Assembly (NCBI GenBank): GCA_964351495.1 | Contig: CAYGOC010000001.1 | Coordinates: 129,342 to 193,341 of the forward strand | DNA: 64,000 nt | Direction of reading: 5' to 3' | From: an uncultured bacterium | GTDB taxonomy: Bacteria > Chlamydiota > Chlamydiia > Chlamydiales > SM23-39 | Shown: one piece after another, positions 28,042 through 28,794 of the stretch | How positions within the stretch are numbered: position 1 is the stretch's first letter | How the letters are laid out: every line of letters begins with the position of its first letter | Program-made: the position numbers and the translations under genes | The notes under the pieces: generated by a model | Told to the model about the DNA's origin: nothing | The model's database searches: none | The model's input: only the letters and a program-made list of their open reading frames with translations

Positions 28042-28794
28042 TTGGATGCATTTGATGCCTATCAAGCGCGGTGGAAAGCTTTTGCTAGGCACCGCGTTTT
28101 TACTCCTTTTAAAAGGGGAAGATCTGATGAAGAGTTACAAGAAGAGTTTTATGAAATCTCTTCTACTCGTTTTAATCTTTGGAACGAACAAGAGTATGCT
28201 GTCTCTGAAGAACTTTTTTCAAACGATACCATAAGAGCAAAAAACTGCGCAGCCTTTGCTTATAACAATACGGCTTCTTACTACAATGCGAGCACTATCT
28301 ACCTTGGAGGTAAAAGCTATGTAGCTTGCGAGGGTCCCCGGAAAAAAACGGTTCCTCACTTTTTTAAACTGCTTAATTTCACAAAAACAACACATTTAGT
28401 TCGTCTTACTCCCGCTTATGAAGGAACTTTAGAAAAGTGCTATCCTTACTGGGAAAACCTTTGTGAGGATACCTATCTTTGTTTAGGAGAGACTAAAATT
28501 CGCCTATTTATTATGGAAAACTGGAAAGATAACAGGGGTGTTTCTCCACAAGAGTTATTAGATATAGCGCTCCAGGTAAAAAAAGAGAGTAAAAATGGTT
28601 TTCTAACTGTCCATTGTAGTGCAGGCGTGGGGCGAACAGGCACTTTTCTTGCAGCGCTAGCCATTTTAGATGCTACAAAAAGTCCCTTTAGTATCGAAGA
28701 GATTGTCTACCGGCTTGCTGTGCAAAGAAAAAACTGCGTGGGAGAAGCTGCCCAGTATATTACGCTGTATCGCCTAGCAGAAACAATCCTATAA
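28042..28794 (+). CDS. Classical (eukaryote-like) protein tyrosine phosphatase
   Basis: VHCSAGVGRTGTF P-loop (HCX5R(S/T)), YNASTIYLGG.SYVACEGP (YINAS...IATQGP-like), WKD in the WPD-loop position, and Q-loop QRKNCVGEAAQY. Apparent TTG start 8 nt after the HIT gene stop. Confidence 0.85.
   Translation: MDAFDAYQARWKAFARHRVFTPFKRGRSDEELQEEFYEISSTRFNLWNEQEYAVSEELFSNDTIRAKNCAAFAYNNTASYYNASTIYLGGKSYVACEGPRKKTVPHFFKLLNFTKTTHLVRLTPAYEGTLEKCYPYWENLCEDTYLCLGETKIRLFIMENWKDNRGVSPQELLDIALQVKKESKNGFLTVHCSAGVGRTGTFLAALAILDATKSPFSIEEIVYRLAVQRKNCVGEAAQYITLYRLAETIL

Follow-up and report, generated by a model that had tools for sequence, protein, structure and literature searches.

Classical protein tyrosine phosphatase (PTP) domains are characteristic of eukaryotic signalling, and their known bacterial representatives are mainly injected virulence factors; YopH of Yersinia and SptP of Salmonella are bacterial proteins with this fold. 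Among HIT proteins, the Fhit and the GalT/ADP-glucose phosphorylase families both act on nucleotide-phosphate bonds, and in NitFhit, the classic 'Rosetta-stone' case, a HIT enzyme is fused to a second hydrolase. Here we analysed a stretch of 64,000 nucleotides (nt) from an uncultured bacterium of the Chlamydiales (GenBank assembly GCA_964351495.1, contig CAYGOC010000001.1, positions 129,342 to 193,341; hereafter the window), in which a gene for a tandem-HIT protein is directly followed by a gene for a classical-fold Cys phosphatase. Both proteins belong to known superfamilies; new, as far as we found, are a HIT-PTP module that spans the Chlamydiae, the fused forms of this module, a systematic loss of the residues that recognise phosphotyrosine (pTyr), and a recurrent natural equivalent of the 'H96N' state of Fhit. 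We tentatively interpret the pair as the derived form of an exported module that would act in two steps on a nucleotide-linked phospho-compound.

The tandem-HIT gene occupies positions 26759-28033 on the forward strand (424 amino acids (aa), stop codon TAG at 28031-28033) and is separated by an 8-nt spacer (28034-28041) from the PTP gene on the same strand (28042-28794), which encodes 250 aa without a signal peptide. As the original prediction had stated, the PTP open reading frame (ORF) begins at TTG 28042; no other start is possible, since a TAA at 28024-28026 closes the frame. The same 250-aa product is given by an independent database gene call (P0001), and an identical sequence was also recovered from a second sample. 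The weak Shine-Dalgarno-like element AGGT preceding the PTP gene overlaps the HIT stop codon. For the HIT gene, the public call (P0121, 409 aa) begins 15 codons downstream at GTG 26804, thereby losing a signal-like segment; we favour ATG 26759, because GGAGG lies 3 nt upstream of it and the homologues carry signal peptides. Judged from the 8-nt spacing alone, co-transcription is plausible, and this tandem arrangement suggests that the two genes of the window are probably both co-transcribed and translationally coupled. A fusion of the two products by programmed frameshifting or read-through is ruled out by the TAA in the PTP frame, and the only candidate stretch for a -1 shift between the two frames, AAC CTG TAG, is not slippery.

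Sequence and structural model both identify the window PTP as a class I classical phosphatase and neither a low-molecular-weight nor a dual-specificity type, in agreement with the original prediction. Pfam Y_phosphatase (PF00102) scored 100.3 bits against a gathering cut-off of 20.9, the PDB sequence matches included the receptor PTPs (RPTPs) epsilon and alpha at about 1e-30, and by sequence and profile the best solved relatives were metazoan receptor PTPs (RPTP epsilon/alpha, LAR, CD45 and PTPbeta) together with PTPRQ. An AlphaFold2 model built from 30 homologues had a predicted local distance difference test score (pLDDT) of 95.3 and a predicted template modelling (TM) score of 0.93, and Foldseek matched it with probability 1.0 and a TM score of about 0.74 to PTPN22, PTPbeta, RPTP epsilon D2, RPTP alpha and SHP2. 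The family comprises more than 240 homologues, labelled in GenBank as 'tyrosine-protein phosphatase' or 'hypothetical', and almost all come from metagenome-assembled genomes (MAGs) of Chlamydiae, with a few from MAGs labelled as other symbiont-like lineages. Two types, A (to which the window PTP belongs) and B, are about 30% identical to each other, and the family has its own N-terminal helical segment (E-x-R-W...F...PGKSD). In one MAG (JAKBAE01) there are two paralogues, of which the type A gene has a HIT gene next to it (L001) and the type B gene has none (L028).

To describe residue states, the window PTP was aligned to PTP1B and key positions were counted over 120 homologues; the register of this PTP1B numbering agrees with the PDB alignments. 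The P-loop H191-C192-S-A-G-V-G-R198-T-G-T (HCX5R[S/T]; 28612-28644, forward strand; VHCSAGVGRTGTF) lies within the segment VHCSAGVGRTGT at residues 190-201, which conforms to the classical signature (I/V)HCXAGXXR(S/T)G, and the equivalents of His214, Cys215 and Arg221 (H191, C192 and R198) are invariant in 120/120 homologues. In the equivalent of the WPD loop, W161-K162-D163-N164 (28522-28533, forward strand), W161-K-D163 aligns with the WPD or WPE of RPTPs and CD45, and D163 corresponds to the general acid Asp181, which is Asp in 119/120 homologues. The position of Pro180 is Lys162 in the window and Arg or Lys in 102/120 homologues, and that of Phe182 is Asn164 in the window and Asn or His across the homologues. 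The Q-loop region (QRKNCVGEAAQY; 28723-28758, forward strand) retains the equivalent of Arg257 (R229) and of Gln266 (Q238; Gln in 118/120); the position of Gln262, the first catalytic Gln of this loop, is occupied by Gly234, and none of the 120 homologues has Gln there (Ala 58, Gly 39, Ser 18). The equivalent of the pTyr loop is R65-A66-K67-N68 (R45-Y46-R47-D48 of PTP1B; 28234-28245, forward strand). Tyr46 of the KNRY loop sets the depth of the pocket and the specificity for pTyr; its position is Ala66 in the window, and among the homologues it is Ala in 92/120 and Tyr in only 2/120. The positions of Arg47 and of Asp48, which binds the peptide, are Lys67 and Asn68 in the window and mostly Pro and Gly, respectively, in the homologues. 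In addition, the window PTP has a short deletion of a near-invariant Pro-containing loop. Judged from these alignments, residues for the chemistry are kept and residues for pTyr-peptide specificity are lost family-wide, and the window PTP looks catalytically competent. The original prediction of a full set of class I motifs is thus correct for the strings that it quoted (YYNAS...YVACEGP, WKD, VHCSAGVGRTGTF and QRKNCVGEAAQY), all of which are present, but not for the residues at Tyr46 (Ala), Asp48 (Asn), Phe182 (Asn), Gln262 (Gly) and the Pro of WPD (Lys).

Compared with the metazoan classical PTPs (RPTP alpha/epsilon D2 and PTPRQ), the chlamydial protein shares the fold, the HCX5R(S/T) P-loop, the mobile loop with the general-acid Asp and Gln266. 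A profile match was found to PTPRQ, a PF00102 protein named phosphatidylinositol phosphatase in the PDB. In lacking the KNRY Tyr, the chlamydial protein is reminiscent of the D2 domains of receptor PTPs, whose activity is low, and among the structural matches was an engineered RPTP epsilon D2 entry (6d4f; A455N/V457Y/E597D) in which V457Y restores this Tyr. In contrast to the metazoan proteins, to which it is only about 20-28% identical, the chlamydial PTP is compact (250 aa), and its family has W-[R/K]-D, an always replaced Gln262 and the specific N-terminal helix; moreover, this family is bacterial, usually Sec-exported and genetically coupled to a HIT protein. YopH and SptP, likewise bacterial, share with it the classical fold and the chemistry of the P-loop. 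However, they are much more distant, the Yersinia loci being only 23-25% identical, and in the window PTP, which has a HIT partner and Sec-signalled homologues, no N-terminal secretion/chaperone-binding domain is apparent. Since the NCBIfam models for SptP (19.1 bits against 1118) and XopH (18.7 against 500) scored far below their cut-offs, and no YopH, SptP or XopH entry was found among the top 50 Foldseek or the top 60 profile matches, the nearest of which were metazoan PTPs, the YopH/SptP-type assignment made in the original prediction could not be upheld.

The partner protein of 424 aa scored 75.1 bits with Pfam HIT (cut-off 21.5). Its N-terminus resembles a signal peptide (MLKKCFLFFFALSNTVTAS) and is followed by two HIT halves, of which the N-terminal one (residues ~80-170) is degenerate and the C-terminal one (~283-392) is Fhit-like. 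The two halves are homologous (hhalign probability 95%, E = 2.5e-8), and this internal duplication together with the hydrophobic signal-like N-terminus supports the secreted tandem-HIT protein that had been predicted. With an AlphaFold2 model of pLDDT 85, the top Foldseek matches of the whole chain were the GalT-like structures 1zwj and 2h39 (ADP-glucose phosphorylase) and GALT (E about 1e-6). The C-terminal half superimposed on Fhit with a TM score of 0.77-0.78 normalised to the target (26% identity), and its nearest PDB entries by sequence were Fhit and NitFhit. What the original prediction overlooked is that the nucleophilic His in the middle of the HIT motif, H378-V-N380-M-H382 (27890-27904, forward strand), is replaced by Asn. 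The window protein therefore has neither the canonical triad H-phi-H-phi-H-phi-phi nor the GalT-type H-x-H-x-Q motif, having H-x-N-x-H instead, and in the N-terminal half no member of the family has a triad. The window motif H-V-N-M-H-V-L aligns residue for residue with the HVNVH of Fhit H96N (2fhi), the top PDB match. Fhit H96N is the standard hydrolysis-deficient variant and retains biological activity (PMC9121386). By analogy, the window HIT protein probably binds a nucleotide ligand without turning it over.

This substitution is not confined to the window. An exhaustive representative search yielded 67 cluster representatives of the tandem-HIT family at E <= 1e-30; the HIT alignment profile returned only 9 proteins from an index of 5.8 billion proteins, and a metagenome scan returned 5 loci. 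Many members have HxHxH and many the GalT-type HxHx[Q/K], with HxHxQ in L004, L009, L023, L026, P0129 and P0146. HxNxH was found in the window, P0122, P0123, L003 and L005, HxTxH in L020 and HxLxH in P0169. Both P0122 and P0123 are full-length H-N-H HIT proteins, 56% and 41% identical to that of the window, respectively. In the loop behind the HIT motif, at about residues 396-401 (FSINYN; 27944-27960), a Tyr is conserved in the clade of the window as [IL]-N-Y-[NDE]. This Tyr lies roughly at the place of Tyr114 of Fhit, the Src phosphorylation site, and by that analogy the HIT protein itself could be a pTyr substrate.

The likeness to Fhit and NitFhit (HIT branch 2) thus lies in the C-terminal half, which aligns best with them and in which HVNMHVL reproduces H96N, and the HIT-PTP and HIT-HAD fusions described below are comparable to NitFhit. 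Unlike the homodimeric Fhit, the chlamydial protein is a single-chain pseudo-dimer with a dead N-terminal half and a signal peptide, and the motif of its family is plastic (HxHxH, HxNxH or HxHxQ). The GalT branch (galactose-1-P uridylyltransferase; Arabidopsis At5g18200) has two HIT half-barrels per chain, provides the top whole-chain Foldseek matches and shares H-x-H-x-Q with many tandem-HIT family members. However, the sequences share only about 9-11% identity with this branch, the chlamydial protein has its active half at the C-terminus, and the window copy has H-x-N-x-H.

The pairing of the two genes recurs well outside the window. A scan anchored on the PTP, with one genome per GTDB species, gave 29 loci at 29-56% identity, mostly in Chlamydiae MAGs, and in 13/29 the PTP gene has a tandem-HIT gene no more than 500 bp away. 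Together with four extra pairs (L076, L082, L088 and L091) and the window, 18 distinct loci carry the pair, refuting the possibility that it is not conserved elsewhere. All relative orientations were observed, namely HIT then PTP on the same strand (window, L006, L023, L026 and L082), PTP then HIT on the same strand (L004, L007, L009, L018 and L076), divergent (L001, L002, L005, L024 and L088) and convergent (L003, L020 and L091). When all ORFs within 6 kb of the PTP were clustered, no other gene family recurred in more than 4/30 loci. In L006 a single ORF combines a signal peptide, one canonical HIT domain and the PTP, and P0146 (716 aa) joins a PTP to a tandem HIT, so that both fusion orders occur. 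Furthermore, P0220 consists of a signal peptide, a tandem HIT and a HAD hydrolase, and P0226 of a HAD followed by a HIT domain, suggesting that a hydrolase domain of another superfamily can occupy the place of the PTP. Partners can also be exchanged, as the neighbour of P0122, the HIT protein 56% identical to that of the window, is a type B PTP with 30% identity to the type A PTP of the window. We found no description of such a module in literature searches on HIT-PTP pairing and on PTPs in Chlamydiae, in line with the original prediction, which did not recognise it as a described system, and searches on Simkania, on nucleotide-centric themes and on bacterial classical PTPs gave nothing relevant to it.

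At four loci, a receptor gene combining dCache_1 with a class III nucleotide cyclase domain (Guanylate_cyc) lies directly upstream of the HIT gene or of a PTP-HIT pair (L078:3945-5960 and 7486-9501; L080:1273-3288; L003:7271-9253; L081:2-340). These genes share 54-91% mutual identity, and a NUDIX gene is found nearby in L078 and L003; no such receptor gene is present in the window. The adjacency could reflect shared synteny of related MAGs or a link to nucleotide signalling.

Export signals are a second common property of the family. About 100 of 115 PTP homologues (about 85-90%) carry a hydrophobic stretch at the N-terminus and, behind it, a small-residue site of the A/S-x-A/Q type, and most HIT partners also bear Sec-type signal peptides. 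Two seeming exceptions among the PTPs (P0017/L091 and the PTP of L076) are mis-called starts, as the upstream frame restores their signal peptides; with the shortened HIT call P0121, these cases suggest that automated annotation misses export signals in this family. PTPs that truly lack a signal include those of the window, L003, L005, L025, L026, L089 and L090 and the P0146 fusion. In the window PTP, the conserved fold sets in around residue 9, and order in the model starts at residue 3 (pLDDT 91 for residues 1-15). This protein has neither a Sec signal nor, in essence, an extension ahead of the fold, and sequence and model would leave little room for a type III secretion signal. For the family, the signal-peptide pattern points to Sec-dependent export, with the periplasm as destination or type II secretion as a further step, and not to type III injection. 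A rule by which H-N-H HIT proteins accompany signal-less PTPs fits the window, L003 and L005 and was rejected because of the hidden signal peptide of the L076 PTP. At L089, a 513-aa protein with several long hydrophobic segments (5795-7336, reverse strand), reminiscent of inclusion-membrane proteins, is encoded convergently with the signal-less PTP P0042, whose gene overlaps an upstream methyltransferase gene by 4 nt.

Linkage in all orientations, fusions in both orders and the HAD-HIT fusions together suggest that the two proteins share a substrate or perform consecutive steps. We therefore lean, with due reservation, towards a module in which the double-HIT protein would bind and then cleave or transfer a nucleoside-5'-phosphoryl group, and the PTP would take a phosphomonoester off the substrate or off the HIT product. 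Its role would be the scavenging or detoxification of dinucleotides or nucleotide conjugates and not the dephosphorylation of pTyr proteins. Such a module would act outside the cytoplasm, either at the cell envelope (periplasm) or after secretion into the vacuole or host, because both partners usually have Sec-type signal peptides. The HIT family acts on nucleoside-5'-phosphoryl bonds, and the PTP has gained a basic residue in the WPD loop (W-[R/K]-D) while keeping the residues of phosphomonoesterase chemistry. The copy in the window would be a derived one, with tandem and tightly coupled genes, a signal-less PTP and Asn in place of the HIT nucleophile. A functional analogue of such a division of labour would be the periplasmic two-step nucleotide salvage of Haemophilus, performed by the pyrophosphatase NadN and the HAD-type acid phosphatase e(P4). 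The HIT-PTP pair would likewise combine an exported dinucleotide-splitting protein with an exported phosphomonoesterase, which in P0220 and P0226 would be of the HAD type as in e(P4). This likeness is one of analogy, however, since the two pairs belong to unrelated protein families and HIT-PTP has no uptake system linked to it.

Several observations weigh against this interpretation. Classical PF00102 domains are overwhelmingly protein pTyr phosphatases, with PTPRQ as the main known exception, and the retained general-acid Asp would suit a tyrosine leaving group as well as sugar or nucleoside hydroxyls. The HAD fusions belong to more distant tandem-HIT relatives (E about 1e-22), 16/29 PTP loci are without an adjacent HIT gene, although several of these contigs are short, and six loci of the HIT clade of the window (L078-L081, L085 and L086) are without an adjacent PTP gene; in one MAG the two genes are found on separate contigs (L027 and L078). 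Signal peptides were called by hydrophobicity and by eye. Finally, since the HIT protein of the window lacks its nucleophile and the PTP lacks a signal peptide, the two may not share a compartment and the HIT step may not run in this organism.

The original prediction had proposed the phosphatase as a host-targeting effector, and a pair of host-directed effectors is a possible, if doubtful, alternative to the exported two-step module. The PTP would then be delivered by the type III secretion system (T3SS) in this organism and by Sec and type II secretion in its relatives and would dephosphorylate host pTyr proteins, and the Fhit-like HIT protein would be a co-effector disturbing host signalling by Ap3A/Fhit-type or cap nucleotides. 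A classical fold nearest to metazoan PTPs, an intact catalytic Cys, Arg and Asp, and a family nearly confined to obligate intracellular Chlamydiae plus a few symbiont-like MAGs would all speak for such effectors, as would the missing Sec signal of the window PTP, which is shared with T3SS substrates. Furthermore, as Fhit H96N is biologically active without hydrolysis (PMC9121386), a natural H-N-H HIT protein could serve as a signalling mimic. However, most PTP homologues have Sec signal peptides, and in the window PTP residues 1-15 are modelled as ordered, with no extension before the conserved helix, which weakens the T3SS claim in particular. The residues for pTyr recognition have been lost, the SptP and XopH models remain far under their cut-offs, no conserved chaperone-like neighbour was found among the clustered loci, and the replacement of the PTP by HAD in fusions argues for a generic phosphatase role. 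We also consider it unlikely that, in environmental Chlamydiae, an exported, repurposed non-pTyr PTP and an obligate double-HIT partner form a nucleotide-ligand-gated or substrate-trapping phosphatase system at the host-symbiont interface, in which the partner of several lineages, including that of the window, would naturally be 'H96N-type', binding nucleotide without hydrolysis.

Regulation within a complex, with the HIT protein as a nucleotide sensor that controls the PTP or as its pTyr substrate (cf. Tyr114 of Fhit), seems improbable to us. It would agree with the two fusion orders, the 8-nt distance in the window and the conserved [IL]NY[NDE] Tyr, and the repeated loss of the HIT nucleophile (Asn in two clades, Thr in L020 and Leu in P0169) from an otherwise conserved pocket would fit a role in binding only; yet most family members have a complete HxHxH or HxHxQ motif, and no kinase is associated with the pair. 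The same Asn substitution, together with the lost signal peptide and shortened Pro-containing loop of the PTP and a TTG start with a weak Shine-Dalgarno-like element, could reflect local decay that left a catalytically dead HIT protein and a PTP stranded in the cytoplasm. This is quite improbable, as both ORFs are intact with all other invariant residues conserved, an identical sequence was recovered in the second sample, and the full-length H-N-H proteins P0122 and P0123, at 56% and 41% identity, imply long purifying selection after the change. A combination of HIT and phosphatase (PTP or HAD) also recalls APTX/PNKP, and aprataxin, a HIT protein that removes 5'-AMP, was a weak structural match (Foldseek rank 49). 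Nevertheless, nucleic-acid end processing by such a protein and a 3'-phosphatase is very improbable, because the proteins lie outside the cytoplasm according to their signal peptides, Fhit and GalT rather than aprataxin match best, DNA-binding domains such as a zinc finger are absent, and no repair genes lie nearby.

A coherent bacterial family of more than 240 classical PTPs that has kept the catalytic machinery and dropped the pTyr residues, and that is usually Sec-exported and linked or fused to HIT, could reveal a new substrate class for this fold. The proposed module would add a new exported activity to the host-symbiont interface of Chlamydiae, bacteria that depend on host nucleotides, and the natural His-to-Asn variants of the HIT partner represent an evolutionary experiment on whether Fhit-like action proceeds by binding or by hydrolysis.

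The original prediction had also framed the pair with a promoter and a terminator as a dedicated bicistron. Both sites exist, a promoter-like site 5' of the HIT gene (TTGACA-18-TAGACT; 26689-26718, forward strand; 10/12 matches) and a terminator-like hairpin behind the PTP gene (AGACCC...GGGTCT followed by a T-run; 28806-28841, forward strand), but the hairpin is weak (dG -8.9 kcal/mol, z = -1.7). In addition, the region contains 10 promoter-like sites against 9.9 expected from shuffled sequence and 4 terminator-like sites against 4.4 expected, so that their frequency is that of chance and they were discarded as evidence for a bicistron. Recent horizontal transfer or a mobile element was likewise rejected, since the pair, with a GC content of 0.34-0.40, does not differ from its flanks and only short, chance-sized repeats bracket it; among the loci, a DDE transposase lies near the pair in L076 only. 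Base composition and flanks thus indicate a resident gene pair of a chlamydial genome.

Together with an ORF of 241 aa (28981-29706, forward strand), the pair forms a block between lysS (25094-26686) and the convergent cysS (29703-31106). These two genes are presumably neighbours in Chlamydia trachomatis (CT781/CT782), in which case the block would be an insertion. The 241-aa ORF has its own promoter-like site (28929-28957; TTGACA-17-TATCCT with TG) and no match in Pfam or NCBIfam. At none of the other loci examined is lysS, cysS or this ORF found beside the PTP, and synteny with lysS and cysS was therefore rejected as a functional clue (the Hint-LysRS idea). Elsewhere, the window has features typical of chlamydial genomes, all on the reverse strand: a MurC-Ddl fusion (43760-46072), a putative Na+/H+ antiporter of PF07399 (10560-11963) and a run of shikimate-pathway genes (19754-25045) that includes an aroA-like ORF of 429 aa and a DHquinase-shikimate dehydrogenase fusion. 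Three large ORFs at 17570-19267 (forward strand), 38950-40386 (reverse strand) and 56517-58529 (forward strand), encoding 565, 478 and 670 aa, had no Pfam match at E <= 1e-5 and are candidate lineage-specific proteins. An aas-type acyltransferase/ligase is also encoded in the window.

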